Positions 7,009 through 45,900 of a DNA stretch of 64,000 bases are shown here, piece after piece. The position numbers and the translations under genes were made by a program. The stretch is taken from contig OY820579.1 in the NCBI GenBank assembly GCA_963681965.1, forward strand, positions 3,968,001 through 4,032,000. Direction: 5' to 3'. Positions within the stretch are counted from its first letter, which is position 1, and every line of letters starts with the position of its first letter. The notes under the pieces are model-generated. The model was not told the DNA's origin and did no database searches. It was given only the letters and a program-made list of their open reading frames with translations. This DNA is from a bacterium. Lineage in GTDB: Bacteria; Electryoneota; JAOADG01.

Positions 7009-7041
7009 ATTGTGTCATATTTTCGATTGCGAGAGGCGAAA

Positions 7042-23515: not shown

Positions 23516-25876
23516 ATGGCAATGTACACACTTGAATTGGAGTCGTCGATGCCAAAGAGAATCCTCTGTTTGATTAATACTTTCCTCATTTTGATCGTAA
23601 GCTTGTCGATCTTCGATTCGATGGTATTGGCTCAGGATAGTTCGGGCGTACGTTGTATTCAGCGAATAGTCAATAACAGGTCGGTTAACTTAATAGCTAG
23701 CAATGGCAATTATCTCTGTGCTTTAGTCAATAATCAAGTAAAGATTTTCGATATATCCATTCCGAACCACCCACACGAGATATCTTCGATTCCAATTATT
23801 GGTGACGTAAAAAAATTTATCTTAACATCGAACCGACTTTATCTTGCAAATGATTTCGATGGTATCCGGATTTACAGTCTTACCGATCCATATAACCCTG
23901 CATTGATTACTACCTATCGATTACCAGATACTGCGATAGACATGGCTCTTCAAAACGATCATTTGTATCTAAATATCCATGAACACGGTCTATTAATTAT
24001 CGACGTTGGAGATTCCCAGAATCTTAGATTGTTGGGTAGCTTGGATAGTATCAATTTTGCATATTTTGTGGTGTCAGGTAGATATCTTTATGGAGTTGGA
24101 TGCTGTCTTTGGACTTATGATATCTCAAATCCCGACAGTATACAGCTCATGTCGGAATATGAACTTCCCTACACTTGGGTTTTGGTATCCATCACAAAAG
24201 TCGGATCAAACGTCTATTTAGGGGGTCAAGGAACAGCTTGGTATACTTGTTTCGGCATCTTGATCGGCATCGATGTTTCCGATCCAACTAATCCTGTTGA
24301 GCGCGGTCGTTTTTATGAACCAGCTCAAGGCTCAAGAGAGCAATTGAATTCATATAGTAACATCAACCAAGTAACAAACATTGGAAATAACGTTGTCGTT
24401 TCGGCAGAAATATCCGAACGACAGTACAATGGTTCCTTCAGAACTTCCAATATTGTACAGATCTTGGATATTACAAATCCAGACAGCATCGAATCGAGTT
24501 GGGGAGTGACTTTATACTCCGACACGACATACTACCGGAGTAGAGCTGTTCGTGAGTTATCGGTAACCGAAAGCACTATCTATTGTGCCGAAGGCGAACT
24601 TGGACTCGCGAGTATTCCCACAAGAACAAATTCCTATTCTACGAGTGTACTCTCTTTTCAACCTCGATTGATCACTCACATCGGAAATTATCTCGTTGCT
24701 TCCACCAATAACCAAATCAGCATCTCCGATATCTCTGATCCGGCTCATGCAAGTTTGGATGCTCTCATCGATGTATCGGATTCGATCGAATTTTTGGGAT
24801 CCTTCAACAATACATTACTACTTGGAACGGCACATCGTGATTCTTTATCTGCGATAAATCATGAGATGGTGTTGTATAACTTATCCAACATCAATACACC
24901 GGTCCACCTGAGTAATTGTGAGGTTCCAGCACAAATACAGGATATCGCAATCGACGGCGCTTATGCATATGTTGCCACTGGTGATTCTGGAATGAAAATC
25001 GTAAATATTGCCAACCCACAATCGATACAGATTACTGGATCCATGCCGGTACCAACCGATCAGCTTGAAATCAGTGATCACTATTTATTCGCATTGAACA
25101 AGCATCAATTCCGGAGTTATCGATTGACGGATCCGATTCATCCCGAACTTATCAGCGAATTTTCGGATACGTCGCTGGTTTTTCGTAATCTTGCTGTGAT
25201 CGGCAACCGGCTCTATTATTGCGAGGCAAGTTCCATTTATCATCCCGACCAGAATTACTATAACTCTCAAGCGTTTATTAGAGAATTTAACATCTCCGAT
25301 CCAACCCATCTTGTTCCGATGCGAAGTTATATGTTGGCGGAGTATAATTCAGCCTATCACGCTTTTCTGAATGCCAGATTTCTTATCCCAGCGAGCACAC
25401 ACTTATTCTATCAATCCGATTTTTTGGGAACGATAAATATATTAGATCTTACCCGACCCGATAGCATCAGACGATGTGGTTATTATCATACAAACGGATA
25501 TGGTTCCACTGTGATTGGTAACAATATTTTCTTGACGAGAGATTATTCTATTGACCTCTTTGACTGTTCCCAAGCACTCGGCGTAGTCGATCACCGATCC
25601 GAATCTATTCCGACCACCTTCGCACTCAAACCGAATAACCCGAACCCTTTCAACGCCACAACTGAGATTCACTACACGATTCCAGCGACCGCAAAAGTCG
25701 AGTTAAAAGTATTCGATCTGACCGGGCGCGAGGTTGCAAAGTTAGTCGATTTCAATCAGAATCCGGGCGAGTACACTTACCATTTCGACGGCAAAGCGCT
25801 TGCCTCCGGCACCTATTTTGTGAGGTTGAAAGTAGGTGCTTTCATGCAAACGCAGAAAATAATTTTATTGAAGTAA
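23516..25876 (+). CDS. LVIVD-repeat secreted protein with T9SS type-A C-terminal sorting domain
   Basis: Repeated (I/V)xD(I/V)S(N/D)P units (GLLIIDVGD, GMKIVNIANP); C-terminal PNPFNA...SGTYFVRL...KIILLK. Start may instead be ATG 23549. Confidence 0.82.
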   Translation: MAMYTLELESSMPKRILCLINTFLILIVSLSIFDSMVLAQDSSGVRCIQRIVNNRSVNLIASNGNYLCALVNNQVKIFDISIPNHPHEISSIPIIGDVKKFILTSNRLYLANDFDGIRIYSLTDPYNPALITTYRLPDTAIDMALQNDHLYLNIHEHGLLIIDVGDSQNLRLLGSLDSINFAYFVVSGRYLYGVGCCLWTYDISNPDSIQLMSEYELPYTWVLVSITKVGSNVYLGGQGTAWYTCFGILIGIDVSDPTNPVERGRFYEPAQGSREQLNSYSNINQVTNIGNNVVVSAEISERQYNGSFRTSNIVQILDITNPDSIESSWGVTLYSDTTYYRSRAVRELSVTESTIYCAEGELGLASIPTRTNSYSTSVLSFQPRLITHIGNYLVASTNNQISISDISDPAHASLDALIDVSDSIEFLGSFNNTLLLGTAHRDSLSAINHEMVLYNLSNINTPVHLSNCEVPAQIQDIAIDGAYAYVATGDSGMKIVNIANPQSIQITGSMPVPTDQLEISDHYLFALNKHQFRSYRLTDPIHPELISEFSDTSLVFRNLAVIGNRLYYCEASSIYHPDQNYYNSQAFIREFNISDPTHLVPMRSYMLAEYNSAYHAFLNARFLIPASTHLFYQSDFLGTINILDLTRPDSIRRCGYYHTNGYGSTVIGNNIFLTRDYSIDLFDCSQALGVVDHRSESIPTTFALKPNNPNPFNATTEIHYTIPATAKVELKVFDLTGREVAKLVDFNQNPGEYTYHFDGKALASGTYFVRLKVGAFMQTQKIILLK

Positions 25877-26266: not shown

Positions 26267-26298
26267 GAAAAACGGGAGACTGCGATGAGCCTCCCGTT
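26267..26298 (-). terminator. Hairpin between convergent genes, probable terminator of the Mgl operon
   Basis: AACGGGAG-12nt-CTCCCGTT with an adjacent A-run (T-run on the minus strand). Confidence 0.55.
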
Positions 26299-26355: not shown

Positions 26356-27609
26356 TTAATCGTCGATAAAAAACTGGCGCGACGATTTCATCACTTTATC
26401 CCACAAGAATGTACCACGCTCGATTCCGAAAATGAATAGATAATTGTCGATGTGGACGCGTGCCGACTTCCACGAAGTCAGTTGCGCCACTTTATTTACC
26501 CAATTATCGTACTCCGCCTCATTGCGCGTTCGCAACGCCATCATCAACGCTTTTCGATTCGTCTGATCGAGGAATGTCTCTTTCCACGTCCCCTTCGGTT
26601 CGAAGACTGCGCCTACTTTCGGTGCTGCCGGTGCTGCCGGAGCAGTTGGTGCTTGTGGTGGAGTTGCCGCTACCGGAGCGGGTTTCGGTGGTTCCGGCAC
26701 GGGTGCTGCCGGTTTCGGAGCCATGGCTGGAGGTGGTGTCATCGCCGGTGGCTTCACTGCCGGAGTTGCCACTGGTGCCGGTCGCGGTGGTGGCGGTGGC
26801 GGCGGAACCGGACGTGTTGGTGTGGAAACACCTAATCCAAACGCATCATCTTCATCGATCTTGGCTGGCTCTGGCGGCTTCGCTGTCATCGGTGGCGGTG
26901 TCTGCGCTGGTGCCGGTCGTGCCGCTGGTGCAGGTGCCTGTGCAGGTGCTGCCGGCATTACCGATTCCAGCGGTTCTTCGGTCGTCGTGCTCAGGTCGTG
27001 GAACGAACCACCCGAAATCATCTTGCGGGTGACAACGTAATCTTTCCGCAATGCATTATAGCGCGCCATAATCAGCGCGAGATCGTCGACACCGATCGCA
27101 TTCATTCCGAGCGATTCTTCCAACCGCACCACATCGGCAAGCACTTTCACTTCCGACATATTCAACACGGTGGCGATCACACCGGGTTCCAGCGTCGTTC
27201 CACTGAAACCAAGACCAGTCGCGCGTTCGAAGACCTGTTTTGCCAAATCGATCGAATCGGCTTCCAACCCGCGCAAATCGATCGGGTTGTCCGACCAGGT
27301 TGTACGCACTTGATCGAATGACTTTCCAACCGCTTCCTGCAATTCATTTTGCGAAAAGGTGAACGCATTGAGAATCGCTTCGACGACTGCTTCACGCGTT
27401 TTGGCATCGACCAATGCAACATCGAATTGCGGGAGTGTCAGCAAGCGATCGATTTCGGCTTCTACCGACTCTTTCGCTTTCGCCGACAGTCGGTCGCGCA
27501 CCTCAGGCGACTTGTTCCATTGCGTCAATTCGCGGTACGGAAGACTCGCTCTCCCTTTCAGTAAATCGTCGATCCAGCCGGCAGGTACGGTTTGTTGTGA
27601 CACGCCCAT
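26356..27609 (-). CDS. Hypothetical protein: helical N-domain, Pro/Ala-rich linker, small helical C-domain
   Basis: GGAGG RBS upstream; last gene of the Mgl operon; long PAPA/PPPP-type linker. Confidence 0.8.
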   Translation of the reverse strand: MGVSQQTVPAGWIDDLLKGRASLPYRELTQWNKSPEVRDRLSAKAKESVEAEIDRLLTLPQFDVALVDAKTREAVVEAILNAFTFSQNELQEAVGKSFDQVRTTWSDNPIDLRGLEADSIDLAKQVFERATGLGFSGTTLEPGVIATVLNMSEVKVLADVVRLEESLGMNAIGVDDLALIMARYNALRKDYVVTRKMISGGSFHDLSTTTEEPLESVMPAAPAQAPAPAARPAPAQTPPPMTAKPPEPAKIDEDDAFGLGVSTPTRPVPPPPPPPRPAPVATPAVKPPAMTPPPAMAPKPAAPVPEPPKPAPVAATPPQAPTAPAAPAAPKVGAVFEPKGTWKETFLDQTNRKALMMALRTRNEAEYDNWVNKVAQLTSWKSARVHIDNYLFIFGIERGTFLWDKVMKSSRQFFIDD

Positions 27610-27631
27610 AGATTTGTCCTCCTAATCGCTA

Positions 27632-29560
27632 CTACGAATTCGGATGTTTAGTTTGATATTTATCGCGAATTGATTCTAATTGAAGTATGTCTAGATGATC
27701 GACGCCGACATAAGCCACGATCTCGACCCCTTGCGCGACTTCCTTCTCATTGACCCCTTTCAGGATCTGCATCACGCATTCGATCGGAACTTGCGTCTCC
27801 GGCATTCCCATCTCGAGAATGAATCCTTCCAACCGGCGGAATTGTCGGATCACCAATTCCCAGCGGCGTTTGATCGGCATTCCGTCGATATATTCCATAA
27901 AAGACGATTTGAGATTGGCATCGGAATAACCGGTCTGAATGGTTTGCGAAAGAATCGTCCGAAATTCCGGATCGATCTGATCGCGGGTAATAATTTCGTG
28001 CAATGCAGCTTCGATCGATTGATAGTTCGTTAATCGATTGCAGAACGCTGTCAATGTCGGTAATGGTTCCAGAACCAGTCCGATTTCCAATGCAATCGCG
28101 CGCCGAACGAGTTCCATCCATTCCCGTTTCGTTACCATCCGCTTCTTCGCCAGATGATTGCGCAACTGCATCAGGATCGATCTGCTCTCTTCGTCATGCA
28201 GATCGAAGGCATGCGTCAATTTTCCGATCGTGCCGTCGACATCTTCGGTCATCATCAAAACGACCCAGCTCCCAATTCGCGGAGGTATTTTCGCCATCGG
28301 AATTTTATCGATCGGAAGCGATTCGACTTTATCCTGCCAACTCTCCTTGGCAAGGTCGTGCATCTTGACAAATAGCTCGGCAATTCGCTCGGTCGTTCGA
28401 AAATCCTGCATCTCCTCGCGATGTTCGCGTACTTCCGGTTTATTTGCCGGACGTTCCGCTACTGCCGGCGGGGGGGTACGCGGTTGCATAACCGGTTGCG
28501 GTGCCGGTTGAGCTGCGGGTTGCGGCATCGGATGCACCGGCGGCGGAGTGGGAGCGGAAACCGGCATCGGTTGGCGCGCGGTTTTCGATTGAATCGTTTC
28601 CGCCGACAACGGCGCTGCGAACGAGAAGCGTTTGGATTCCGAAACTGGTTCCTGCAATTCCTGCGGAGCAATTTCATCGAGTGCCGAAAAGGTCTCGATC
28701 GGCGGTGTCGTCACTTCGGGTTTTCGATACGGCGTGTTGATCGACGTCTTCTTGATACTGGTAACCGGTTCGATGAATTCGATGTCGTTGTTTTCGATGT
28801 CGTCTTCACCGAGTAATTCATCGGAAGCACTCGCTTCGTCCGATACGCGCGCCGCATCGATGACCAGCGTTTGCCATTGCTTGCCGATCGTCTTTTGGGT
28901 GCGGACATACGGACCGACCGTAAATTTTCCGCCGGGCCATTGAAACATTTCGTAGAAGGCATCGACACCGACATTCGCAACCGTTTTCGCGTGGATGATG
29001 ATACCATTGTCGATTGCGATGATTCCTTCATTGCGACCGGAATTCACTTTCAACGTAGATTTTCGACCGCTGATTCCGAGTAGCTGAATCACCTCCGCCA
29101 TGTGCAGTTGTCCGACAATCCCCTCGAATCCACTCTTATCCTTATCGGAAAGAATGTTGGTTACTTCGCGTCGCAGCAATTCGAAATCGAATGGTTTCTC
29201 GATATAGTGTACTGCGCCGAGTCCGTAACTTCGGGTACGCAACTCGGGGCTGGAGAATCCGGTCATGACGATGAATTTGATATTGGGATGTTCTTGCTGC
29301 ACCCGCACCATTAAATCCAAACCGGACAGATTCGGCATTCGGATATCGGTGATAATTACTTCGACTTCAGGATTTTCCCGAATGATACTCTCGACTTCCA
29401 ACGGGTCGGTAGAATAAAGCGTCTCGATATTTTCGTCGATCGAGTCGAATAGTCCCCGCAACGCGAGTACGATATCCTCCTCGTCGTCGACGACGATAAT
29501 TTTATGGAGGGGAACGTCTTGATCGTTCGGGTCCGGAATTTTTCTCAGTCGATTTGGCAT
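27632..29560 (-). CDS. Response regulator: REC + DUF4388/PATAN-like + Pro-rich linker + helical C-domain
   Basis: IIVVDD...IITDIRMP...MTG...EKPF (intact REC); GFEGIVGQLHMAEVIQL...GIIIHA...GVDAFYEMFQWPGGKF (DUF4388 pattern); TAATG overlap with mglB. Confidence 0.85.
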   Translation of the reverse strand: MPNRLRKIPDPNDQDVPLHKIIVVDDEEDIVLALRGLFDSIDENIETLYSTDPLEVESIIRENPEVEVIITDIRMPNLSGLDLMVRVQQEHPNIKFIVMTGFSSPELRTRSYGLGAVHYIEKPFDFELLRREVTNILSDKDKSGFEGIVGQLHMAEVIQLLGISGRKSTLKVNSGRNEGIIAIDNGIIIHAKTVANVGVDAFYEMFQWPGGKFTVGPYVRTQKTIGKQWQTLVIDAARVSDEASASDELLGEDDIENNDIEFIEPVTSIKKTSINTPYRKPEVTTPPIETFSALDEIAPQELQEPVSESKRFSFAAPLSAETIQSKTARQPMPVSAPTPPPVHPMPQPAAQPAPQPVMQPRTPPPAVAERPANKPEVREHREEMQDFRTTERIAELFVKMHDLAKESWQDKVESLPIDKIPMAKIPPRIGSWVVLMMTEDVDGTIGKLTHAFDLHDEESRSILMQLRNHLAKKRMVTKREWMELVRRAIALEIGLVLEPLPTLTAFCNRLTNYQSIEAALHEIITRDQIDPEFRTILSQTIQTGYSDANLKSSFMEYIDGMPIKRRWELVIRQFRRLEGFILEMGMPETQVPIECVMQILKGVNEKEVAQGVEIVAYVGVDHLDILQLESIRDKYQTKHPNS

Positions 29561-30057
29561 TAAAGATCCAGCGGCTCGTCACCGCCCCCCCGTATGGCGT
29601 CGACAATATCCTTCCACTTTCCCTTCTGAGGATCGATATCGGCGTCAGCCTGTTGACTTCGTTCAGTAATGATTTCGCCGATTTGCAGCGCAATCTTCTC
29701 CGAATACATTTTCACCATTCCCAATGTGGTTGCTTCATTGAAGATCGCAACCAGCAGATGATCGGTAGTCAATTTTACGACAAATATTCCGTTCTTTTCC
29801 CCTTTCCAGAACGTCGATTCGAAATTCGTTTCGCCGGCAACTTTCGCCGTTTCCTTGGCGGCGCCGAACGAAGCGGCGATCAGGGTTGCCAATCCGATCG
29901 GATCGGTCAGCTCGCTCGAACCGACTCGGGCATAGATATAGCCATCCTCACCGATCAACAGCGCCGTCGAAGCTTGTGCCTCTTCGATCAGTACCGTGAG
30001 ACAGGTGGTTATGACTACAAGAGTCGATTCGTCGATGGTCGTGTCGCGGATAATCAC
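29560..30057 (-). CDS. mglB: Roadblock/LC7 protein, MglB-like GTPase-activating protein
   Basis: ALLIGEDG, LATLIAASFGAAKETAKVAGE, LLVAIFNEATTLGMVK; directly downstream of mglA. Confidence 0.8.
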   Translation of the reverse strand: MIIRDTTIDESTLVVITTCLTVLIEEAQASTALLIGEDGYIYARVGSSELTDPIGLATLIAASFGAAKETAKVAGETNFESTFWKGEKNGIFVVKLTTDHLLVAIFNEATTLGMVKMYSEKIALQIGEIITERSQQADADIDPQKGKWKDIVDAIRGGGDEPLDL

Positions 30058-30059
30058 GG

Positions 30060-30827
30060 TTACTTGCCCTTACCGAATAACCGACCAAGCCATGCGAACA
30101 TGCCGGGTTTCTTAGCCGGAGCTGCCGCTTTTTCTTCCGGTTTGGCTGCCGGTGCACTCTTCGGTTTTCCGATCGTGGTCGATGGTGTCGGCGGCACTTC
30201 GGGTGCTGGTGCCGATGCTGCAGCAGCATCGACTTCGGCGAAAATTGTTCGTTTGAAATCTTCAATCACACAGGTAGTGATCGCTTTCAACGTATCGAAT
30301 ACCCCTTGTCCGGTCAGCGCTACCGCCTCGACAAACGGCAATCCCTTCGAATTCAATTCGATATTAAGAATATCGAGTGGAATTACGCCTGGGATGTCAC
30401 GCTTGTTGAATTGAAACACGAGTGGAATCGTATCGGGATTCATTTTCAGTTCGCGCAAGTTCGCCATCAAATTTTCGAGACTCTCTTTGTTCTCGGCGAT
30501 TTTTCCATGCTGCGAATCGGCAACGAAAACGATGCCGTCTGCACCCTGCAACACGAGTTTCCGCGACTGGTTGTAATAAACCTGACCCGGAACGGTGAAG
30601 AGTTGCATGCGCAACGAAAATCCCTTCACTTTTCCGATTTCCAGTGGAAGTAAGTCGAAGAACAACGTGCGATCCTGCTGGGTTGCAACTGAAGACAATT
30701 CGCCTCGTTTATCGGCGGGTAGCATTCGATGAATCGTCTGAAGATTCGTGGTTTTACCGCATAGCCCCGGTCCGTAATAAACGATTTTACATTCTAATTC
30801 GCGTTTTGCATAATTGATGGTTGCCAT
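30060..30827 (-). CDS. mglA: MglA small Ras-like GTPase with C-terminal extension
   Basis: INYAKRELECKIVYYGPGLCGKTTNL, DRTLFFD, TVPGQ, FNKRD, EAVA; ATG 30827 follows an AGAGG RBS. Confidence 0.93.
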   Translation of the reverse strand: MATINYAKRELECKIVYYGPGLCGKTTNLQTIHRMLPADKRGELSSVATQQDRTLFFDLLPLEIGKVKGFSLRMQLFTVPGQVYYNQSRKLVLQGADGIVFVADSQHGKIAENKESLENLMANLRELKMNPDTIPLVFQFNKRDIPGVIPLDILNIELNSKGLPFVEAVALTGQGVFDTLKAITTCVIEDFKRTIFAEVDAAAASAPAPEVPPTPSTTIGKPKSAPAAKPEEKAAAPAKKPGMFAWLGRLFGKGK

Positions 30828-30858
30828 ATCGGATCCTCTGCAAGATCGGTTGAGTTGC

Positions 30859-31212
30859 TTACTCTCGTGAATAATTGCCAATACTATCCAATCGCGTTTG
30901 AAGCGAACCGGCAAGTGCCAGTAGCTGACCGTAATTGGCGTTGGGTTCGGTTATTGCCGTTAGCAGCACCGAACCGCCATCGACGGTCACGACCGTTCGA
31001 TCGTCCAACGTCAGCAGCATCGTGCGGTAGTTGTCGTCGTCGATCTGCGCCAATGCGGTTCGCAAATCGTTGGCATAATTCGCCAGCCGCGGACCCAAGT
31101 GGTCGGTCTTCGATTCCGGAAAATGCTCGATCACAATTCCATCCCGGTCGATTAACTCGACTTCAAGGATGCCGTCCGCTGTAATAAAACTATTGAAAAA
31201 AGAATTCTTCAT
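30859..31212 (-). CDS. Roadblock/LC7 protein (second copy)
   Basis: DGILEVELIDRDGIVI...LLTAITEPNANYGQL roadblock pattern. Confidence 0.72.
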   Translation of the reverse strand: MKNSFFNSFITADGILEVELIDRDGIVIEHFPESKTDHLGPRLANYANDLRTALAQIDDDNYRTMLLTLDDRTVVTVDGGSVLLTAITEPNANYGQLLALAGSLQTRLDSIGNYSRE

Positions 31213-31221
31213 ACCCTTAAC

Positions 31222-31596
31222 TCATAATTTGATGAGTGGTAGTAAAAAACGTGCCGTCTGCTGGCTCAGTTTCCAGGAATGATCCACTTCCGTATTCCAG
31301 CAATAGACAATCAGGTATTCGCGATAAACCAAACAATGCAATTGCGTCGATGGAAGCGATACCGAGAATTGATCGAACGCTTTCTCGGAATGCTCACTCG
31401 CGGTTCGCAATACCCGTAAGTACCGGATCGCTTGTCCGGCGACCGTCAGCTGTTCCTGACGCTCCATCGATCCGCATTGAAGAACCGGAAGTCCTACCGC
31501 CGAAACGATCATCACATGACGCATTCCCGGTTTTCCGGTAATCGTCGCAAGCACCGATTCCAGCGATTTGGGCGGAAAGAGGCGCCAGTACCACAT
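31222..31596 (-). CDS. Divergent roadblock/LC7-like protein (third copy)
   Basis: LESVLATITGKPGMRHVMIVSAVGLPVL; ATG 31596 lies 1 nt after the upstream stop. Confidence 0.6.
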   Translation of the reverse strand: MWYWRLFPPKSLESVLATITGKPGMRHVMIVSAVGLPVLQCGSMERQEQLTVAGQAIRYLRVLRTASEHSEKAFDQFSVSLPSTQLHCLVYREYLIVYCWNTEVDHSWKLSQQTARFLLPLIKL

Positions 31597-31597
31597 T

Positions 31598-32467
31598 TTA
31601 TAAGCCTTCCAGGAAATTGGTAAAGCTGCTGACTTCTTGTTCTGCCAATTGCGCAATGTCTTCAGCCTTCGTCAGCAATCCTTCCTTGTTCATCAGATGC
31701 AATCGCTCGATCGCTTTCAACCATTCGTCACCGGTTAACGATTCGCCGCGAAGTTTCGCTTCCACATTGATCGCGTGAACATAACCGCCTAATCCGCGAT
31801 CGGTCAACATTTCCGCGATATCTGTCGATATAAATTTTCCGTCCCACTCTTTATCGCGTGCAAGCAACGTGGAAATGTCGCGGACAATTTCCTTGATTCC
31901 ATTCAATGGTTGCGCTGCATACGATTTCTCGACGGCATTCGAAATCGATACTTGAAATTCCCGTCGCGAGAGTTTCAGTTGCGGTGAATCCTGCAAGAAC
32001 ATCGCGACTTGACGAAATGCCGGCACTGCCAGTCGTTCCCAATTCGACAAATATTTCAAAATGACATTCAGCGCATTTGCCGCCAATTCTCGCTTGATCA
32101 ACGTGTTTTCGCGGCGATCGAACAGCAGCTTGGTTGTCTCTTCAACCGGAGTCCAAGTAAACCGATAATAGAAATTGTAGGCTTCCCGATAAATTTTCTG
32201 CACATCTTCGAATTTCAACGGCCACGGTCGTGTCAGATGGTACTGAAGCTGCGCCATCGACTCTTGCGGACTGTCGGAATTCATCATGATCTTCACGGGA
32301 CCGAGTGCAATCTCGCCACCGAACAGTGGAGAAAACAGGATATACAGATAACTGCGGATAGTGCCGTGTGTTCGGTTGACAACGTCTTTCAGTTCCTGCT
32401 TCCCATCCTGTTGAATAATCGATCGGGTATCCTGCAGGGAAATATGTTCAATAATGCCGCTATCCAT
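31598..32467 (-). CDS. Hypothetical all-helical protein
   Basis: 289 aa, GGAG RBS, tightly packed in the operon. Confidence 0.75.
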   Translation of the reverse strand: MDSGIIEHISLQDTRSIIQQDGKQELKDVVNRTHGTIRSYLYILFSPLFGGEIALGPVKIMMNSDSPQESMAQLQYHLTRPWPLKFEDVQKIYREAYNFYYRFTWTPVEETTKLLFDRRENTLIKRELAANALNVILKYLSNWERLAVPAFRQVAMFLQDSPQLKLSRREFQVSISNAVEKSYAAQPLNGIKEIVRDISTLLARDKEWDGKFISTDIAEMLTDRGLGGYVHAINVEAKLRGESLTGDEWLKAIERLHLMNKEGLLTKAEDIAQLAEQEVSSFTNFLEGL

Positions 32468-32476
32468 AAATTCTCC

Positions 32477-32833
32477 TTACTGACGGTGCTTGCGATTTCG
32501 TTCGATTTCGAGTTGTTTTTCGATTTTCGAATGCAAATAACCGAGTTCGATCGGTCGATTATATTTGGCGGTAATCCAATCACCATTGGTGCGAATCGCC
32601 ACAAGAATACTCTGCTCACCTTCGAGATATACCGCACAATCGGCTTTTTCCGGAAACAACGGGTGATGACCGAATGCCGCACAAACTTTTCCAATCCCTT
32701 TGCTGTCAGTCGCTGCCGCATCGGCTGCGGAAACAACCGTACTCCCCTCGCAACCGGTCAACGTCTCGAGATACTTTCTCCAGAAAGTCACTCGGGGATT
32801 GGGATTGCGATTTTCAGGTTCGTCACTCATCAT
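32477..32833 (-). CDS. Hypothetical protein (118 aa)
   Basis: ATG 32833 follows the kinase stop and the ORF fills the operon gap. Confidence 0.6.
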   Translation of the reverse strand: MMSDEPENRNPNPRVTFWRKYLETLTGCEGSTVVSAADAAATDSKGIGKVCAAFGHHPLFPEKADCAVYLEGEQSILVAIRTNGDWITAKYNRPIELGYLHSKIEKQLEIERNRKHRQ

Positions 32834-32846
32834 CGACTCGGAAACA

Positions 32847-34754
32847 CTATTCTTCAATATTGATCGGGATACTTGGTAACAGGAACGAAATACGATTCCA
32901 TGGCTCGTTGCGATAGGGAACAATCACTCCGCCATTCTTCTGAATCAAGCGTTGCACGGCGAACAAACCGATGTCGGTACCGCCTGCTTCGGCACGGAAG
33001 AATGGGTCGAACAAGCGCGCGAGAATTTCCGGCGACGACTTGGGACCGTTGTCGTTGAACCGGATGACGGTACCACCGCCTAAATAATTCTGGCGAATCG
33101 ATTCCAATGTAAAGACTTGCTCCGGTTCGGTCAATGCCAAACCTTCCAACGGTGCCGCTTCGATCAGGATTTCACCACCCTGATCGACACTGTCGATCGC
33201 ATGAACGAGCAGATTCAACATCGTCTGTAAAATCTGGTCGGGATTGACAAATACTTTGATATCTTGCGCTGTTTCGACATACTTCACGGAAATCTTTTTC
33301 GCGGCGATTTTACTCGACATTAATTCGAATGTTTGCGTGTGTATGCCCGATACCGAGATCAATTCGGGTTGTTCACGACTGACCCGGATTGCGGCAAAGA
33401 ACGACTGGAACAGCCGATTCAAGCGATGCACCTGACTGTTGGTTCGGTGCAGCATCTCGACCGCGGGATGATCCTTCTCCAATTTCAATTCGATCAATTG
33501 CGTCATGCCGGAAATACTAGCCAGCGGATTGCGAATATCGTGCGCGAGCGCAGATGCCAAAATTTCCATCGAAGCAAGTTGTTCCAACCGGATGCGTTCT
33601 TCCTGCATGTGCTTGATCAGCGAGATATCGCGGAAATGAATCACCGTACCGACTTTACGACCCAAGCGATTGGTCCGCGTAGTGACCGAATAGCCGATCT
33701 GAATTCGATTATAATTGATATCCACCGACAATTCGTATGTCTGCCACGGTTTATCTTCGCTCGCATGCTGCATAATCTCTTGGGCGATATTGTCGCCAAA
33801 CAGCGAACCGAGCGTCGATCCGAACACGACATCGTTATTCAAACCGATAATTTCGCGTGCCGCTTTATTCATGAATTCGAGACGACCGTTCAGATCGACG
33901 GTGATGACACCGGAATACAGCGAATCTAGAATACTGCGGCTGAACATGTGCACAGCTTCTTCCAATCGGTGCAATTGCGTAAGGTCGTGAAATACGATCG
34001 TGCGACCGCAAACGGAGCCATTTTCGTTCCGTAATTCGGTCAGCGAACATTCGATTACCATCGGACCGCGCGGTGTTTCGATATGCAGCTCGCGCGAAAG
34101 TAGAAAACTGGTGATTGGGGAATTCAGAATCAACTCTTCCGCTTCTTTTCCGAAGAGCTTGTGGAGCGGAGTATTCTGAACTTCAGTCGACTCTAGTCCG
34201 AGAGAGATAATTGCCGAACGATTGACAAAATAAACGCGACCGTTTTCCAGCACCGAGAGAATACCGATGCCGATCGAATCGATAATACTTTTTGCGTTGG
34301 TGGAGATATCGAAGGCGATCGGTTCATCCTGGGTAGAGGAGTCTGCCGTAGCCAGATCGGTTTTTCGGTCGGAGGTCGATTCCAGAGAATTGATGATATC
34401 AAGCAGCAGTTTCATCGATACGGGTCGCCGGAGCAGAAAAGAAGCACCGGTAAGATTCAAAAATTCGCGGGAATTGCGTTCGCTGTCTTCGGTAATCGCA
34501 ATCCAACTGACTGCTCCATCCGAGGGGAGACCGACTTTTTTCCGGTAAGCCCGGAGAATTTCGGTGTAGCTCATCTCGGAGGGGGGATCGTTTAAAACTA
34601 GCAGCGAAAATCGATGGCGGTTGGAAATTCCTTTCAACATCGTACCGGGAGTAGGGAAAGCACTAACGCTCCGCCCGGCATGTTCGAGGGAGCGTGCATA
34701 TTTTTCCCGTAGTTTCTCGTCTGGTTCGACTAATACAATTGAATCGATTTTCAC
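32847..34754 (-). CDS. Atypical sensor histidine kinase: pseudo-REC + 2 PAS + HisKA + degenerate HATPase
   Basis: H-box LAHDIRNPL; two PAS-like segments; altered N/G boxes NLLVHA, DNGPK, GTDIG; no TM segments seen. Confidence 0.85.
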   Translation of the reverse strand: MKIDSIVLVEPDEKLREKYARSLEHAGRSVSAFPTPGTMLKGISNRHRFSLLVLNDPPSEMSYTEILRAYRKKVGLPSDGAVSWIAITEDSERNSREFLNLTGASFLLRRPVSMKLLLDIINSLESTSDRKTDLATADSSTQDEPIAFDISTNAKSIIDSIGIGILSVLENGRVYFVNRSAIISLGLESTEVQNTPLHKLFGKEAEELILNSPITSFLLSRELHIETPRGPMVIECSLTELRNENGSVCGRTIVFHDLTQLHRLEEAVHMFSRSILDSLYSGVITVDLNGRLEFMNKAAREIIGLNNDVVFGSTLGSLFGDNIAQEIMQHASEDKPWQTYELSVDINYNRIQIGYSVTTRTNRLGRKVGTVIHFRDISLIKHMQEERIRLEQLASMEILASALAHDIRNPLASISGMTQLIELKLEKDHPAVEMLHRTNSQVHRLNRLFQSFFAAIRVSREQPELISVSGIHTQTFELMSSKIAAKKISVKYVETAQDIKVFVNPDQILQTMLNLLVHAIDSVDQGGEILIEAAPLEGLALTEPEQVFTLESIRQNYLGGGTVIRFNDNGPKSSPEILARLFDPFFRAEAGGTDIGLFAVQRLIQKNGGVIVPYRNEPWNRISFLLPSIPINIEE

Positions 34755-35376: not shown

Positions 35377-36261
35377 GTGTCTGAATCCGAATCAGCAGCC
35401 AATCGTCTTGATCAAATCTCCAATCTGCCCACTATTCCCGGAATTCTGGTTGAAATCCTCGGATCGTTGCAGGATCCCAATATTGGCTTCGATTCCTTAA
35501 AAAAAATTGTCTACAAAGATCCGCCACTCGCCGCACGGATTTTACGGATTGCCAATAGCGCTTATTTCGGAAGATCGAATCCGACCAATTCACTGGAGAC
35601 GGCTTTTTTAACGATCGGCATCAATGAATTAATCATGATTATCTCTAGCATTGGTGTCGTCAATTCGTTTGCGCAATTCGGCAATCGCTCGTTCGATCGT
35701 CGCATCCTTTGGAAACACAGCTTAATGACCGGTCTGGTTGCCCGTTATATCAGTCAAAAATTGAATCTCGGGCAGCGAACCAATAACGACGAATTCATCG
35801 CCGGACTGTTGCACGATCTGGGTCATATCATCATTTCGCACTATTTTCCAAAAGAATTCGTTCGCATTCAGGATAGTGCGAAACAAGGACTCGATCCTTT
35901 GGAAATCGAACGCTCAGAACTTGGCAACGACCATTCGGAGATCTCGGCGTTGATTGCTACCCGTTGGCGGTTCTCCGAGACGTTAGTAAATATTCTGCGG
36001 TTCCACCACACTCCTGAGCAGTTCCCCGGCGACCGAACACTGGTACGATTGATCCACTTTTCCGATCGCATTTGCAGTTGGCGACCGAGCGATGAAAAAC
36101 CGATCCCGGTAGAAAATTTGATACTGGATCCGGAATTATTGAAAATAGCATTTCCCGATGCGATACCTGAACGCCTCATTCAGTATTCATTGGCGATTCG
36201 GGAATTGCCTAAAGAAATGGAACGATTTAACGATTTAGCATCGACGATGGATATCTCGTAA
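35377..36261 (+). CDS. Stand-alone HDOD-domain protein
   Basis: LPTIP, DPPLAARILRIANSAYF, WKHS, AGLLHDLG, HSEIS, RFHH. Confidence 0.88.
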   Translation: MSESESAANRLDQISNLPTIPGILVEILGSLQDPNIGFDSLKKIVYKDPPLAARILRIANSAYFGRSNPTNSLETAFLTIGINELIMIISSIGVVNSFAQFGNRSFDRRILWKHSLMTGLVARYISQKLNLGQRTNNDEFIAGLLHDLGHIIISHYFPKEFVRIQDSAKQGLDPLEIERSELGNDHSEISALIATRWRFSETLVNILRFHHTPEQFPGDRTLVRLIHFSDRICSWRPSDEKPIPVENLILDPELLKIAFPDAIPERLIQYSLAIRELPKEMERFNDLASTMDIS

Positions 36262-36298
36262 CACGAATTCCATCTCGAGCAAATCAATTGGGTGAAAT

Positions 36299-37408
36299 AT
36301 GAATGGCACTCCCGCACGAATACTAGTAGTTGACGATGAACCGAATTTGCGCGATTTGCTCGAATCATTCTTAGTACAATTGGGTTACGAAGTTGAAACT
36401 GCTAGAGACGGTATCGAAGCGTTAGCCAAGATCGACCTCGATTTCGATTTAATGTTCCTCGATCTGATCATGCCCGGCATGGATGGCTACGAAGTCATTC
36501 AACGCGTCCGCGAAAATCCCAGCGGGATCGACCTGCCGATTATTGTGTGTACCGGTTTAACCGGTTCCGATCATCGATTGCAAGCGATCGAAATGGGTGC
36601 CAACGATATCGTGTTGAAGCCATTCGATTTCACCGAGATCCGCATCCGAGCAGCCGTACAACTCCGCGTCAAATCCGCTTTCAACGACTTGCGCCGAAAG
36701 AAAGACGATCTCGAAGCAGTAGTAACGAAACGAACGCAAGCCCTCCGCAAATCGCTGGACGACGTCGTCAATGCCGAACGGAAAGTTCGCGAAGCCTATA
36801 TCGAATCAATCTATCGACTGGTCATTGCGACGGAATATTCCGATTCCAACACCGGCTTTCATATTCAGCGGATGAGCAAATACAGTGCGCTGATCGGTCG
36901 CACTGTCGGGCTTTCGCCGGGTGACGTTGAAACCATACTCCACGCCAGCCCGATGCACGATATTGGAAAGATTGGTACTCCACAGGAAATCCTCTCGAAG
37001 CCGGGCAAACTTACCGATTCCGAGCGAAGAGTGATTCAACAGCACACGATGATCGGTTCCCAGATCCTCATTAATTCATCGGCGGCATTGCTGCAAGCCG
37101 GTTCGGAAATCGCTTTGAGTCACCACGAACGGTGGGATGGTAAAGGATACCCGCATCGTCTAGCCGGCGAAGAAATTCCGGTATTTGCACGAATTAGCGC
37201 AGTAGCCGACGTATTCGATGCACTGACGACCGAACGTCCCTATAAACCGGCAATCTCCAACGATGCCGCACTGATGCTGATGAAAAACGAACGAGGACAC
37301 CACTTCGATCCGGTCATGGTCGATGCCTTTCTGGACAATTTCGATGAAGTCGAGCATATTCAACGAACGGTTATGAACAATATTTCACCGATATTTATGT
37401 TCGAATAA
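36299..37408 (+). CDS. REC + HD-GYP cyclic-dinucleotide phosphodiesterase (RpfG-like)
   Basis: ILVVDD, FLDLIMP, KPF; MHDIGKIG, HHERWDGKGYP, VADVFDAL, RPYK. Confidence 0.92.
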   Translation: MNGTPARILVVDDEPNLRDLLESFLVQLGYEVETARDGIEALAKIDLDFDLMFLDLIMPGMDGYEVIQRVRENPSGIDLPIIVCTGLTGSDHRLQAIEMGANDIVLKPFDFTEIRIRAAVQLRVKSAFNDLRRKKDDLEAVVTKRTQALRKSLDDVVNAERKVREAYIESIYRLVIATEYSDSNTGFHIQRMSKYSALIGRTVGLSPGDVETILHASPMHDIGKIGTPQEILSKPGKLTDSERRVIQQHTMIGSQILINSSAALLQAGSEIALSHHERWDGKGYPHRLAGEEIPVFARISAVADVFDALTTERPYKPAISNDAALMLMKNERGHHFDPVMVDAFLDNFDEVEHIQRTVMNNISPIFMFE

Positions 37409-39923: not shown

Positions 39924-42900
39924 TTACTTTTGGAAATTATTACGCTGCGATTCCGCACGTGGTAATCCGGTTGATGAATGCGAAGCAGTACCGAGATCGA
40001 TGATTTCGACAATTACTCTCCCGGTACCTTTTACGGTAATACCATCGTTTCGTCGAATACTACGATCCACGTTACCTTTTTCATCGACCGTTACCGATGC
40101 ATTGACATTGATCGGCAGAATCGAAAGTGTCGGCGCGACCGAACCGCGATTCGCATCGGAAACGATTCTGCCATGACCTCGTCGGATCTGACGTACTGAC
40201 GGACTTACCGTAGTCTTGCGCTGAGTTGTCGGTATTACTTTCGGCACACTGCGGGAAACAGCGGTTACCGGAGAGATCGACAAATCGGTGCTTCCGCGGT
40301 TCTCACCCTCGGCATGTACCGAACTCGTCGAAGCGCTGCTCGAATTAATCGAGATGTGATGATACGCTGTAATACGATAATACTTGGCTGGCAACGACGA
40401 CGTATCGGTCCAAGAGGTCGATTCATTTCCAATTGTCGCAACCAAATTCGATTTACTCACAGTATCGATCGCAAAGTAACCGGTTGTTCCACGATAGACC
40501 TCATACCCGTCGAAGGTTCCGGCAGCTGCCGACCAGCTTAAAACCGATTGACGATTGTCGAGAACAATTTGCAAATTCGATGGTGAGCTGAACGGTTCAA
40601 TACCAAATCCGGATACCACGAAAGTAAATGGATTGCGTAATAAATCGTTGTTCTCAATCGAAATCGTGCCCGACGACAATCCTGCCGATGTTGGCGTGAA
40701 TCGAATGACGAAGATCGACAAACTTCCGCCGGCAATCACGGAATCGGGTTGGGTTTGAACAGAATAAGAACCAGTCGCAGTTACACGTGGCGAACCAGTT
40801 AACTGTAGCGGCGATTCACCATAATTGTAAATCTTGTATGAGATGTCGCGATACAATCCTACGAAGGTGGTATCGGTCGGAACCGACCCGCCATTTGCGA
40901 TCGCGATCAATCCTCGTCGTAATCCAATTACAGGCGCAGAAGTATTCCCCATTACTTGGAACGTGAATGGCGTATTCAACAGATCAGAACTCGGAATGAC
41001 AACTGTTCCGTACGAGACACCGTACACTGACGGTGTAAAGCGAATCGTGAACGTCGTACTTTCTCCCGGTTGAAGGATACTGGCAGATGGATACGAAGCG
41101 ATCGCAAAATCACCGGTAACAGTAACTGCCGGCGATCCCGTTAAATTCAACTCGAAATCACCGGTATTGCTGATAGTGAAGATCTCATCGACACTGTGAC
41201 CCAACGCGGTAGAATCGACAGCGACCGTCGATTCCGACGGAATTGGTACGCCACCGATCGACAGCGAGATTTGCGGGGAAAGTGCAATACAGGTCACACC
41301 AAATTCAAACGGAGAATTCAATGAATCCGAACAATTGAAACTGATTGTTCCCGATGATATACCTGCTACAGTGGGTGTAAAATGGACGTAGAATTCTGTC
41401 AGTTCACCAGGATTGACGGTATTCGCCGGTTGCAGGGAGATAGTGAAATTACCCGTCGTCGTGACAATTGGACTACCACTCAGATCCAAATGATGGTTGC
41501 CGATATTGCGAATATAGATCGGTAACTCGATCGTTTCACCGAGCAACGTCGTATCGAAAGAAACAGTTGAAAGATGATTGACAATCGTTTGCGACCCGTA
41601 CAAGACTTCAACGACCGGCGTCGCGACATATGCCGAGAGATTGAAAGTATAAGTCGGATTGAGCGTATCGTTACTAGCGATTGTCACCGATCCGGTGGCG
41701 GCACCCATCTCAGTAGGTGTAAATCGAACAACGAAATTGGCGCTTCCATTCGCACTAATCGGCGAAGTCGGTTGCGTAACCACCGAGAAGTTACCGGTCG
41801 TATGAACGGCGGGAGTTCCGGTGAGATTCAACGGCATATTACCAGTATTTCTAATCGACAAGGTAACATCGATCGGACGCCAAATCTGAGTCGTATCGAA
41901 TACCACCCGACCAGTGGATGTCGGTACTTCGGTTGTTCCCGAATACACTTCAATCGATGGTGCTCGCACATACCCCGTGACATTAAATGTATAAGGATTA
42001 TGCGTCGAATCGCTGTTAGCGATAGTAACCGTACCCGAGATATCACCCAATGCCGGCGGTGTAAACCGGATTGTCATAGTGGTACTTCCTCCGGCAACGA
42101 TCGAGGTCGTCGGTAAAGAAGTAATCCGGTATCCCGTTGGCACTGTTACTAGCGGTGTACCCGTTAAATTCAAGGTTCGGTTACCGGTGTTGAAAATCGA
42201 GAAAGTCAAATCGACATTTCGCAAAAACGTGGTTGTGTCGTAGACGACAGTTGACGATCCACTCGGAATTGCCGTTGCTCCAAGGCGCACTGCCATTACC
42301 GGTGCGGCAACATAACCCGCAAGAGTGAATGTAAACGGAGACCGAAGCGAGTCGTTGCTCAAAATTGTCGCTGTACCGTAGTTCATTCCGATGGTAGTTG
42401 GGGTAAATCGCAGAATAAATGTCGACGATCCCGCTGCTGCGATATTGATGGCAGGACGCGTAAACAGCGAGAAGTTGCCAGTAGTCGACACCAGCGGATT
42501 CCCGGTCATAGTCAATGTTTGATTACCGCCATTGAACAGACTGAGTGGCAAATCTACTGAGTGCGATAACGAAGTGGTATCGAACAGTGCTGTATCGTTT
42601 CGAGCGATATTCAGCGCGCCATCGCGCACAGAAATTTGAGGACCGTTGGCGAATCCGGTCAAATTAATCTGATACGGACTGTGCAGTGTATCGGTATTGA
42701 GAATTGATAAGGTTCCAGAATTGATTCCTGTCAATCCCGGAGTAAAGCGTACAGTAAATGTAGTCGTTCCTCCAACCGCGATCGTTGTTGCCGGTTGCGT
42801 CACTACCGAGAAACTGCCAGTTGTCGTGACAATCGGGGTTCCAGTTAAATTGAGTGCGAAATTACCGGTATTGGCAATAGTAAGTACCTGATCGACACTC

Positions 42901-45900
42901 CGTCCGACATTACAAGTATCGAAGGTCACGGTACCTGATCCCGAAGCGATATCGGTCGTTCCACGACGTATGACCATATTCGGATTTCGACCAAATCCAG
43001 TCAAAGCGAAATTGTACGGATTCTTCGTCGCATCGTTGTTCGCAATCGAAATCGTACCGGTCTTTGCACCGGCAGATTGGGGTGAGAATCGAACAGTGAA
43101 GGTAGTACTACCGTTCACAGCCACGGGTGTAGTCGGTTGCGAGGTCACGGTGAAGTCACCAGTAGTTGCGACAATTGGAGTGCCTGTCAAGTTGAGGACT
43201 CCCGGACCGGCATTCGAAATCGTGAAAACGACATCGCTGTTTTGCATCACCCGAGTGGTATCGAAGGCAGTCGTTCCGGTATTATCGGCAATCGTTACCG
43301 TTCCTCGTTTGACCGTCATACTCGGTAATGGACTCACACGCATGGTCATCGGAACATTGTAGGGGGAATTCGATGCGTTACCGGTAAACGTTAACGTACC
43401 TACCGATGAATCACCTGTGACTCGATTGCGACCATCGAATAGCATCGAGAATGCTTGATTCGATCGACTTGGAATCGTGAAACTGGTTGTACTGGGTATC
43501 GCCCACTGAGCCGCATTCTGGAACCGAATAGCATAATTCGAAGACGGGAATGCCGCATTGTAATTCACTTGGATATACTGCGATCGATCGGCATTCTGTA
43601 CACCAATCGTTTGGCTATTTCTCGTCAAACTGGTGATCGTGCCGTATTCAAAGAAAATACGACCGTCGTTATAGAGGATAACCTCGAATGTGGCGTAAAT
43701 CGTTCCTGCGGCAGAACCGACTCGAACACCATTCCAAGCAAAAATTGCTCGATTGTTCGTTGGATCCATCAATATTTTTGTAGTGGCGGTACCATTGACG
43801 TATAAATCATCGAAATAAGGTGCAATGATCGACATAATGTTACTGTACGATCCCGCAATCGGAAAAGCGGTATTGTTGTAATCGGTAGCAGTTGTCGAAT
43901 TGAACGTTATCCAACCGTTCGTACACATCCATACCTGATTGTAAGTAGTACCATAAAATGGGAATGAGAACGGCAGCGTAAATGGACCCGAGATTGCATC
44001 GTCACCAATCGGTCCGTCAGTTCCCGTTGAGGCGTCCACCCATGAATAAGTCGGACCACCGGTTTGTGCCGAGGTAGTATATCCGAATGTTCCAAGGTAA
44101 CTACTTGAAGTCAGAGTACCGGAGAATGCTGCATCCCCGGTATTCGACAATGTGTACGTAACACGCGTCGTATCGCTGGGCGCAACATACTGAACAATCG
44201 GATTCGTCGACAAACTAATCGTTGCTGGACCGGAAACAGTGAAATTGGCATTCGAAGTATCGCCGACTGTCGGAATTAAATCGGACATCACGCGAATTCG
44301 CGCGGTCGATGACGATGGCGATGTTGGAATCCAACCGACCGTGCCGGTATTCGAAATACCTGAGAATAGTGTTTCCCAGACTCCCGAAGGGTAACTACGA
44401 TTCAATTGAACGGTAACAGTACCCGTAACCATCGAAGAAGCCCAATTGATATTGAGTGGCGTAACTCCTGACCAAGTTTCACCGCCGTTGGGTGATGACA
44501 TGATCAGTCGTGGAGATCCGATGATTGCATTGCCTTTCATCGTATCGCCTTCTGCACCGGATGGCGAGGTTACGCGGAAACGAGCCGTGTTGGAAGTTGG
44601 TGCAGTGATTGTCCAATTGATCGCTCCAGTATTCGGAGTATTGATCAGAATCCGTTCCCACGATCCTGATGGGTAACTGCGATTCAAATCGATGTTCACA
44701 TTGCTGGTGCCGAGACGACCACGCCACTGCAGCAGTGTACTCTTACCGATAGCAAGTGAATCGCCACTGACCGGTGATAGGAAATGGAACGCCGAGTCGA
44801 TTGGTGCGGTGGTTATTAACATCGCGTGATTCGATCCGGTTCCGGTCGGAATGCTACTGCTACCTGATGAGTAAGTATTCCACCAGCAATATTCCAATCC
44901 CCGGGTGTACGTACCGTCGCAGATTCCGATCGTACAGTAACTAACACCGGTTTCTCCTCCCGAGTAGACTGTCGGATTGAAGGTCTTATACTGCAATAGC
45001 ATTGGTGCATCGCCAGTCGGAGTCTGGTAATAATGCGAATCGTAGATAATGATCTGACACTCGTTCGCAGTCGGCGTCCAGAGTGTCGTGGTTTTCCAAG
45101 TAATAATGAACCGATGATTGGTCACATCCGAATAAGTATACACTCCCTCATTGGTTCCGGAATTCGTCATATCGCACCAATTCACTGCGACCATATTCCG
45201 TGGACCTTCGAAGGTCGGCAGTCGCCAGTTGCGCGAGAAATTAAAATTCGCTTGCGATCCGAACGCCAACCAATCGTTCGTACAGATTGTCACATTTGAA
45301 AAGTCGGTACCGTAGTATTTCACACCAAACGGTAGATTTACTACCACCGAAGAGTCGGTGTACTCATTGATATCGTTCATTCCCAAGCGCGTACCGGGAC
45401 CACCAAGCGCCGGAATAATTTCCACCCAACTATAGGTCGGAGCATTCGCGTAATTCAAATCGGCATCGTCGTAGATGTAATAACCGTATGCATCCGGACC
45501 AGTAGGATCGGTGGCACGTTTCGAACCGACTGTAACGTTGAATGTGATCGTATCGTAAACCGATCCGTTGGAAAATACTGCCATAAATGGTACTTGAGTT
45601 CCCGGCAGCACTTGTGAGTTGGCAAAGATCGTCCATGGCGAACTGGCATTGTTGACGTTTACTTCGATGGGTAGTGTCGCATATTGACTAGTAGCGCTCG
45701 TGACCGACACACCACTCAGCAGCGAAGTCAAAATCGCCGTGGTCGGTGTCGTTATCGCCAGACCGCTGTCGTTGTCCACCGTTACAGTTAATTGCACCGA
45801 TGTGCCGGGGATCCAAGTGCTCGAGGTAGTTGAAGAGATGTAACTCAAATCGAGCGATCGAACGATCAATGGGACGGTCACCGTACGTGACCCTTGATCG

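Follow-up and report, generated by a model that had tools for sequence, protein, structure and literature searches.

Whether three otherwise dissimilar proteins encoded beside a bacterial Ras-like GTPase share a common domain, and what such a domain might do there, was the question raised by a locus on contig OY820579.1 of an Electryoneota genome (assembly GCA_963681965.1). The window, by which we mean the whole 64,000-nucleotide stretch analyzed (positions 3,968,001 to 4,032,000 of the contig), contains a tightly packed minus-strand run of genes for a PAS-PAS histidine kinase, protein X, P3, RB2, RB1, mglA, mglB, P2 and P1, closed by a terminator-like hairpin. P3, P2 and P1 denote the proteins of 289, 642 (a regulator) and 417 residues, respectively, P2C the C-terminal part of P2, and P1N and P1C the N- and C-terminal domains of P1. 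An initial annotation had aligned two blocks by eye in P3, P2C and P1N and proposed, tentatively, a paralogous helical module that could form a hetero-oligomeric scaffold or effector for MglA. Our analyses indicated that the three regions are copies of one domain, and that the locus represents a previously undescribed form of the MglA module which uses this unnamed domain.

The three open reading frames (ORFs) and the quoted blocks were found on the minus strand where the initial annotation had placed them, and both blocks were in register in our joint alignment. Direct pairwise alignment of the copies was not significant (local z scores of 1.1, -1.1 and 0.04, 1000 shuffles each), pairwise identity on the joint alignment was 9.2, 9.7 and 13.4%, and word-index searches for homologues returned just 2, 1 and 1 relatives besides the query. 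Orthologues were supplied by three loci (L001, L002 and L003) from one genome scan with two narrow patterns, which was not a survey. A P3 family was collected by a HMMER scan with a three-sequence P3 profile, giving 20 representatives at E ≤ 0.001, and its alignment comprised 19 sequences including P3, with P0008 (a fragment) and P0018 excluded. P0018, of 404 residues, has an unrelated N-terminal half that appears to be secreted, followed by the C-terminal two-thirds of the P3-family domain, and is probably a chimeric assembly or gene call.

Family-level comparisons related all three regions. Using HHalign, the check that the initial annotation had proposed, the P3 and P2C orthologue families matched with a probability of 98.0% (E 2.7e-13, 239 columns), P3 and P1N with 80.6% (E 1.3e-5), and P2C and P1N with 75.0% (E 2.5e-5); P1C, included as a control, gave at most 0.3% against each of these families. 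When the P3-family profile was run against 159 frames of the window and four reversed controls, P2 ranked second (13.7 bits) and P1 third (5.2 bits), the best unrelated score being 1.3 bits. In two other genomes the same profile scored 59.0 and 36.2 bits on the P2 orthologues and 27.4 and 16.4 bits on the P1 orthologues (best unrelated ORF, 3.0 bits); the L002 orthologue of P1 was not among the listed matches and scored -1.8 bits. The best shuffled or reversed control was exceeded by four of four P2C and four of five P1N sequences with the P3 profile, and by 17 of 20 P3 and three of five P1N sequences with the P2C profile, as opposed to none of the P1C control sequences (0/5 and 0/20).

In a tree of 28 sequences and 177 shared columns (fragment P0005 excluded), P3, P2C and P1N formed clades with bootstrap values of 100, 96 and 99, each holding members from the window and from other genomes. 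Three supported clades that each mix lineages indicated that the triplication is older than the split of the sampled lineages. Based on these data we are nearly certain that P3, P2C and P1N are paralogues of one domain, and HHalign, the joint alignment and the tree together bore out the earlier view of a module present alone in P3, fused to a receiver in P2 and fused to a Pro-rich linker in P1. A fourth copy was found neither in the window nor in the three loci, the next-best score being 4.2 bits, and P1C was ruled out as one by the HHalign and control scores.

The domain is new to Pfam, NCBIfam and the literature searched, and has no name. No family of either database was found for it in the window proteins (P3 had no Pfam match at E ≤ 1), and the wider P3 and P1 families gave nothing beyond scattered single weak matches. 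A PDB sequence search with P3 returned nothing; the only match of the P3 profile, to ScdA (E 0.12-0.24), was taken as chance. Searches of plasmids by tblastn found nothing for P3 and a single match at E 1 for P1C. No published description of the domain was present in the titles and abstract openings of the literature searched, which was mostly without subscription journals.

Structure prediction suggested that the domain is built of repeated lobes. The AlphaFold2 (AF2) model of P3 had a predicted local distance difference test (pLDDT) score of 89.6 and a predicted template modeling score of 0.82, and consisted of three units with one more helix at the C-terminus; within each unit the order is helix, short strand, helix, helix, short strand, helix. 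The last 25 residues of P3 had a net charge of -3 to -11 in all 20 sequences. The P1 model, made from just five P1 orthologues, had a mean pLDDT of 68 (mostly 74-89 in its folded parts) and showed two lobe units that a disordered linker separates from a domain of five helices. Lobe profiles of P3 and P2 matched by position (lobe 1, 95%; lobe 2, 52%; lobe 3, 43%) and P1 lobe 1 matched that of P3 at 32%. The second lobe of P1 matched lobe 3 of P3 at 72% and of P2 at 92%, and P1 therefore lacks lobe 2; its shared domain spans about 195 residues versus about 260 in the three-lobe copies. The earlier claim of the same domain in P1 holds as to homology, with the amendment that this copy is without the middle lobe. 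Lobes within one protein barely matched each other in sequence (best 11%, over 20 columns; a value of 31.7% for P2 lobes 2 and 3 was an artefact of overlapping slices), and for this reason the internal repeat rests on the models.

The separately built P3 and P1 models displayed the same helix-strand-helix pattern, with paired short strands as in EF-hand pairs; dissimilar folds, which the initial annotation had named as counter-evidence, were not what the models showed, although P1 has one lobe fewer. Going by entry names in redundant lists, EF-hand proteins presumably account for 45 of the 49 Foldseek matches listed for P3 and for 42 of the 46 listed for P1. The best superpositions on EF-hand lobes were weak (Z 6.2, root-mean-square deviation (rmsd) 2.7, 67 residues aligned; Z 6.4, rmsd 3.1, 69 aligned), the latter being the match of P1 to apo calbindin D9k, the top one among Foldseek's candidates. 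Fifteen of 50 listed chains were common to both wide VIA-align lists, 11 of them on the homologous last lobe. Together, the models point to a probable EF-hand-like fold of the lobes; for actual descent from EF-hands we would give about even odds.

An EF-hand loop has 12 residues with ligands at positions 1, 3, 5, 7, 9 and 12 (PMC3997525). A whole-sequence scan with a PROSITE-like pattern found a canonical calcium loop in none of 34 domain sequences, and no Pfam EF-hand model matched at E ≤ 1 in 19 P3 sequences, five P1 sequences or P2. Loop positions were tallied for the P3 sequences only. Positions 1, 3 and 5 were mostly non-acidic, position 12, the loop exit, was acidic in 17/19 (loop 2) and 15/20 (loop 4), position 9 of loop 4 was Ser, Asp or Thr in 17/20, and loop 5 kept an Asp in 17/20, the acidic loop of the window copy resembling a canonical one. 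Loop-exit residues were kept in loops 2, 4 and 5. These sequences and models are most consistent with an EF-hand-like topology without canonical calcium sites.

To this we added a predicted complex of whole P1 and P3, a pair chosen because the two genes stay adjacent in L002. The score was 0.69 (runs of 0.72, 0.67 and 0.69) versus 0.00 for the best of three controls. Among solved complexes 116 of 157 reached the score mark, as did 2 of 215 mismatched pairs; these counts hold roughly because our own alignments were used. At least 16% of contacts were common to the runs, and partner pLDDT was at least 83. Recall of a similar complex by the predictor is unlikely, as a sequence search found no solved relative. 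In the predicted interface, helices of the last lobe of P1 meet those of P3, P1C adding some contacts, and 19 of its 21 residues in the last lobe of P1 map onto interface positions of P3. In the model, Glu164 of P1 contacts Arg255 of P3, and Arg183 of P1 contacts P3 residues 235 and 255. Glu236 and Arg255 are invariant in 20/20 P3 sequences and their counterparts, Glu164 and Arg183, in 5/5 P1 sequences, a conservation noticed prior to the complex result. Based on these predictions we lean towards P1 and P3 binding each other through their homologous last lobes. Dimerization via the last lobe would recall the S100 and penta-EF-hand dimers.

The GTPase beside these proteins could be classified. 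Group 1 MglA proteins are marked by a TVPGQ G3 motif and an intrinsic arginine beside the G2 threonine, as set out in PMC4316618. The window protein has TVPGQ at residues 78-82, Arg53 and an adjacent mglB gene, and by these sequence marks it is a Group 1 MglA. In all three loci with the gene, MglA ends in a Pro/Ala linker and a basic amphipathic C-terminal helix (window 30063-30240, minus; L001 11657-12481; L003 11643-12488), whose hydrophobic moment ranked 3rd of 244, 7th of 263 and 7th of 270 windows. We take this tail to resemble a MinD-type membrane-targeting sequence. Among the roadblock genes of the operon (29560-32923, minus), MglB and RB1 are clear and RB2 and X tentative, and all four keep their positions in L001 and L003.

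P2 combines a receiver (residues 21-133, PF00072, E 1e-19, with Asp72, Thr100 and Lys122 present), a DUF4388/PATAN domain (residues 147-243, PF14332, E 7.9e-14) and an acidic, Pro-rich linker before the shared domain. P1C is a second unnamed conserved domain with an invariant Tyr, Ala and Asp-Asn-x-Leu; it had no Pfam match in four sequences and a weak structural match to the PAH domain of SIN3B (Z 5.3, rmsd 2.2, 57 aligned). A PDB sequence match of P1C to a plant methyltransferase (E 0.018 or worse) was taken as chance. The EF-hand-like lobes, the lost lobe of P1, the DUF4388/PATAN domain of P2 and the separate P1C domain were absent from the initial annotation.

L001 and L003 repeat the order X, P3, RB2, RB1, mglA, mglB, P2, P1, the orthology of X and RB2 there resting mainly on position, so that the domain is linked to mglA in three of the four loci with genomic context, the window included. 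The P3 proteins of the other mgl-bearing loci are just about 24% identical to that of the window. The L003 orthologue of P2 (13068-15457) is without a receiver and has a very long acidic repeat linker instead of the Pro-rich one; a split gene was considered and rejected, there being an assembly gap of Ns. L002 comes from Calditrichaeota bacterium AABM5.125.24, and AABM5-125-24 is placed in Ca. Electryoneota of the Fibrobacteres-Chlorobi-Bacteroidetes (FCB) superphylum in PMC9324843, which also reports Electryoneota genomes with flagellar genes. Atlas neighbors of the P1 orthologue were unnamed proteins of 417-530 residues, mostly from Bacteroidota, Rhodothermota and Calditrichota (feature scores 0.90-0.91); for the N-domain alone the score was 0.80 and the template modeling score 0.42-0.50, and these are leads only.

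The nearest known system is the Myxococcus module of MglA, MglB, RomR, MglC and RomY, in which the acidic C-terminal helix of RomR binds the roadblock protein MglC and MglC binds MglB (PMC10329633), RomR being made of a receiver, a linker and a helical region (PMC3441718). The window likewise has a Group 1 MglA, MglB, extra roadblock proteins, a P2 with receiver, unstructured linker and helical C-terminal region, and an acidic helix as a possible binding site for a roadblock protein. In contrast to Myxococcus, all parts lie here in one gene run, the acidic helix is carried by P3 as a protein of its own, MglA comes with the linker and amphipathic tail, and P2 carries DUF4388 and a 257-residue domain of the P3 family, five times longer than RomR-C, which is short and Glu-rich with an invariant Trp and Pro. 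By analogy P2 may at most work like RomR, and we do not file it as RomR.

Other systems share fewer of these parts. In cyanobacteria the pilus motor is bound by PATAN domains, and genes encoding PATAN often lie near mglAB (bioRxiv 10.1101/2021.06.11.447907; PMC4316618). P2 resembles PatA-type regulators in having a PATAN domain and a receiver, but the receiver precedes PATAN, opposite to the arrangement in cyanobacterial PatA, there is an extra C-terminal domain, and no pilus genes were found among the window proteins scanned. The actinobacterial conservon, with a Group 2 MglA, is described in PMC4316618 as an operon of kinase, roadblock, unknown protein and small GTPase; such genes are together here too, but the window GTPase has TVPGQ and Arg53 rather than GTPGQ without the arginine, and its kinase is soluble and not conserved at the locus. 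With calmodulin, centrin, calbindin D9k, S100, penta-EF-hand proteins and bacterial calerythrin the domain would share predicted four-helix lobes, paired short strands and remnant loop-exit residues. It differs from them in the missing canonical loops and Pfam matches, Z scores of just 5-6.4, up to three lobes, and the fusion of one copy to two-component domains.

The reading that we consider best, at a probability of roughly one half, is that the shared domain provides a calcium-free scaffold of pseudo-EF-hands for a Group 1 MglA module. An ancestral gene encoding a helical domain with three EF-hand-like lobes would have triplicated before the sampled lineages split. Because the lobes keep the shape of EF-hand pairs and not the calcium ligands, they may act as constitutive protein-binding modules. 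P1 and P3 are predicted to pair back to back via their last lobes, with reciprocal Glu-Arg contacts, and this dimer could be a scaffold that gathers roadblock proteins and positions the activity of the co-encoded MglA. The acidic tail of P3 might be offered to a roadblock dimer, as the RomR C-terminal helix is to MglC, and the linker and C-terminal domain of P1 might give this protein access to another partner. Phosphorylation input would come via the receiver of P2, with PATAN as the output domain, and the amphipathic tail would hold MglA at the membrane. The likely outcome would be spatial control of MglA-GTP, in cell polarity or the placement of a surface machine. The steps past P1-P3 pairing are what we infer, and for roadblock binding, the effect on MglA and the polarity role we do so by analogy only. 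A more far-reaching version appears unlikely to us: a self-contained, eukaryote-like GTPase platform in an FCB lineage, with a membrane-anchored Ras-like MglA, up to four roadblock proteins assembled in the manner of Ragulator, and the three paralogues, related to calmodulin but calcium-free, forming a hetero-oligomer that couples two-component phosphorylation to the GTPase, the domain being a deep bacterial EF-hand branch widespread across FCB phyla.

Several results weigh against a calcium-free scaffold of this kind. The P1N profile exceeded its best control for just 3/20 P3 and 2/4 P2C sequences, the weaker link, and lobe 1 of P1 matched that of P2 at just 1.9%. No Foldseek match of either model reached E ≤ 0.001, and VIA-align gave Z 5-6.7 overall, under the trust level of the tool, with none at Z 8. 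Agreement between the complex runs may be as low as the 16% given above, and interface columns overall were not significantly more conserved (p 0.08). In P2 the two key sites are occupied by Val/Val/Asp/Glu and by Lys/Lys/Ser/Arg; a three-way complex by the lobe 3 surface is doubtful because most P2 copies have replaced the key residues, and of the hetero-oligomer in the initial annotation it is the P1-P3 pair that is retained, by prediction, P2 being largely without the interface residues. Loci with genomic context were few (n = 4), and the 5.7-kb contig of L002 carries HDOD, P3 and P1 with no mgl genes. This last arrangement, with nothing of mgl between P3 and P1, would suit P1 and P3 having a separate function that predates the Mgl module and extends beyond it, with the shared operon reflecting co-regulation or local history, as would the look-alikes of P1 in the Atlas. 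We hold this to be distinctly unlikely, as the full order is kept in the three mgl-bearing loci despite the divergence of P3, and one copy is fused to a receiver and to PATAN, a domain reported near mglA and mglB (PMC4316618 and bioRxiv 10.1101/2021.06.11.447907). The pseudo-symmetry of the P1-P3 interface also makes a homodimer surface possible: each paralogue may homodimerize via lobe 3, the predicted heterodimer reusing a symmetric surface for which the Glu/Arg pair is equally suited. We think this unlikely, since P1 and P3 are about 10% identical and such distant cousins passed in 0 of 84 cases in the test of the tool, and since P3 and P1 are adjacent in L002, where the intervening genes are missing.

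The fold itself is open to other readings. Non-EF-hand folds tied at the top of the structural lists, the top VIA-align rows for P3 including the ScpA N-domain (Z 6.7, rmsd 3.1, 80 aligned) and Arc/Gag capsid lobes (Z 5-6), with the Copia and Ty1 capsid domains at Z 5.8 and 5.5. These, and the lack of Pfam EF-hand matches in the P3 and P1 sequences, would fit a different four-helix repeat, similar to capsid CA-CTD/Arc or to ScpA and perhaps building a lattice or filament. The paired short strands typical of EF-hand pairs in both models, the kept exit half of the loop in P3 (loops 2 and 4) and the dominance of EF-hand proteins in the Foldseek lists make such an origin improbable. Conversely, the domain could be a real Ca2+/Mg2+ sensor with non-canonical loops that couples ion levels to MglA, as the Asp of P3 loop 5 and the near-canonical acidic loop of the window copy might suggest; with no canonical pattern in any sequence, positions 1, 3 and 5 mostly non-acidic, and apo calbindin D9k as the top Foldseek candidate for P1, we regard ion sensing as quite improbable. 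That the similarity is mere chance between helical proteins would agree with the chance-level pairwise scores, but it is scarcely credible given lobes that match by position, profile E values as low as 3e-13, and shuffled, reversed and P1C controls that stayed clean, and for P3 and P2C it is already refuted.

The features of the gene run are collected in Table 1.

Table 1. Genes, domains and other features of the MglA gene run; positions are those of the window.
Feature	Position	Strand	Residues	Description
P3	31598-32467	minus		Stand-alone copy of the shared domain
P3 lobes			3-105, 107-185, 187-261	EF-hand-pair-like in the AF2 model; first lobe with beta-hairpin insert
P3 lobe 3 (block 2)	31685-31909	minus		Predicted dimerization surface; Glu236 and Arg255 invariant
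P3 acidic C-terminal helix	31604-31678	minus	264-288	Glu278 and Phe285 invariant; absent from P1N and P2C
P2	27632-29560	minus		Receiver, DUF4388/PATAN, linker, shared domain
P2C	27635-28405	minus	386-642	Three-lobe copy (by lobe-profile match), without acidic tail
P1	26356-27609	minus		Two-lobe shared domain, Pro/Ala linker, five-helix C-terminal domain
P1N	27019-27609	minus	1-197	Lobes 1 and 3, without lobe 2; Glu164 and Arg183 invariant
P1C	26359-26604	minus	342-411	Five-helix domain (predicted), not related to the shared domain
mglA	30060-30827	minus		GTPase, Group 1 MglA by sequence marks
mglB	29560-30057	minus		MglB roadblock; PF03259 E 6e-7, above cut-off; NF052242 E 2e-15, under its cut-off
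RB1	30859-31212	minus		Second roadblock protein; above-cut-off matches to PF03259 and PF08923; 89% by HHalign with the MglB family
RB2	31222-31596	minus		Divergent roadblock-like, 124 residues; PF03259 weak, E 0.1; counterparts by position in L001 and L003
Gene X	32477-32923	minus		Tentative roadblock-like; start uncertain (alternative ATG 32833)
Histidine kinase	32847-34754	minus		Soluble, PAS-PAS; upstream of operon
Terminator-like hairpin	26271-26298	minus		11 pairs and T run; 58 nt past P1 stop; closes gene run

The mglB stop codon overlaps the start codon of P2, and RB2 starts 1 nt past the P3 stop. The positional counterpart of gene X in L003 matches PF03259 at E 0.03, and the profile link between this counterpart and the window gene was not significant. 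The PAS-PAS kinase is a possible phosphodonor candidate in the window genome; L001 and L003 have no such gene at the corresponding place. By eye, its N-terminus is receiver-like, without a Pfam match, and its ATP-binding boxes are divergent. The terminator scan was a consensus match only, with 14 sites found versus 11.1 expected in shuffles. Long ORFs on the opposite strand over mglA/mglB (29554-30414, plus) and over P3 (32009-32863, plus) were taken as shadows.

HDOD and receiver-HD-GYP genes lie near the operon in three of four loci (window 35377-37408, plus; L002 2188-3054; L001 5315-6361), with 34% and 36% identity to the window genes. They may hint at a link to cyclic di-GMP, or their proximity may be chance because these families are common. 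Just upstream of the L001 operon is a Ppx/GppA phosphatase fused to a NUDIX domain (7529-8989). Large secreted proteins are encoded elsewhere in the window (23516-25876, 7012-12288, 39924-48299 and 58732-60993), two of which match the Por secretion tail, one of these a C25 peptidase; one has 2791 residues, and one is a repeat protein in a lower-GC stretch (about 43%). The secretion-tail and C25 peptidase domains would suggest membership of the FCB group. The window had no Rfam families, and a scan of part of its ORFs revealed no motility genes.

Most partners known for bacterial Ras-like GTPases are from Myxococcus, Bdellovibrio, Thermus and Streptomyces, and this locus offers a complete candidate parts list from an unstudied lineage. 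The two residue pairs of the predicted P1-P3 interface make the scaffold idea directly testable with soluble proteins. If the lobes do descend from EF-hands, the locus would show bacteria reusing that fold for a multi-lobe scaffold that is free of calcium and stands next to a small GTPase.

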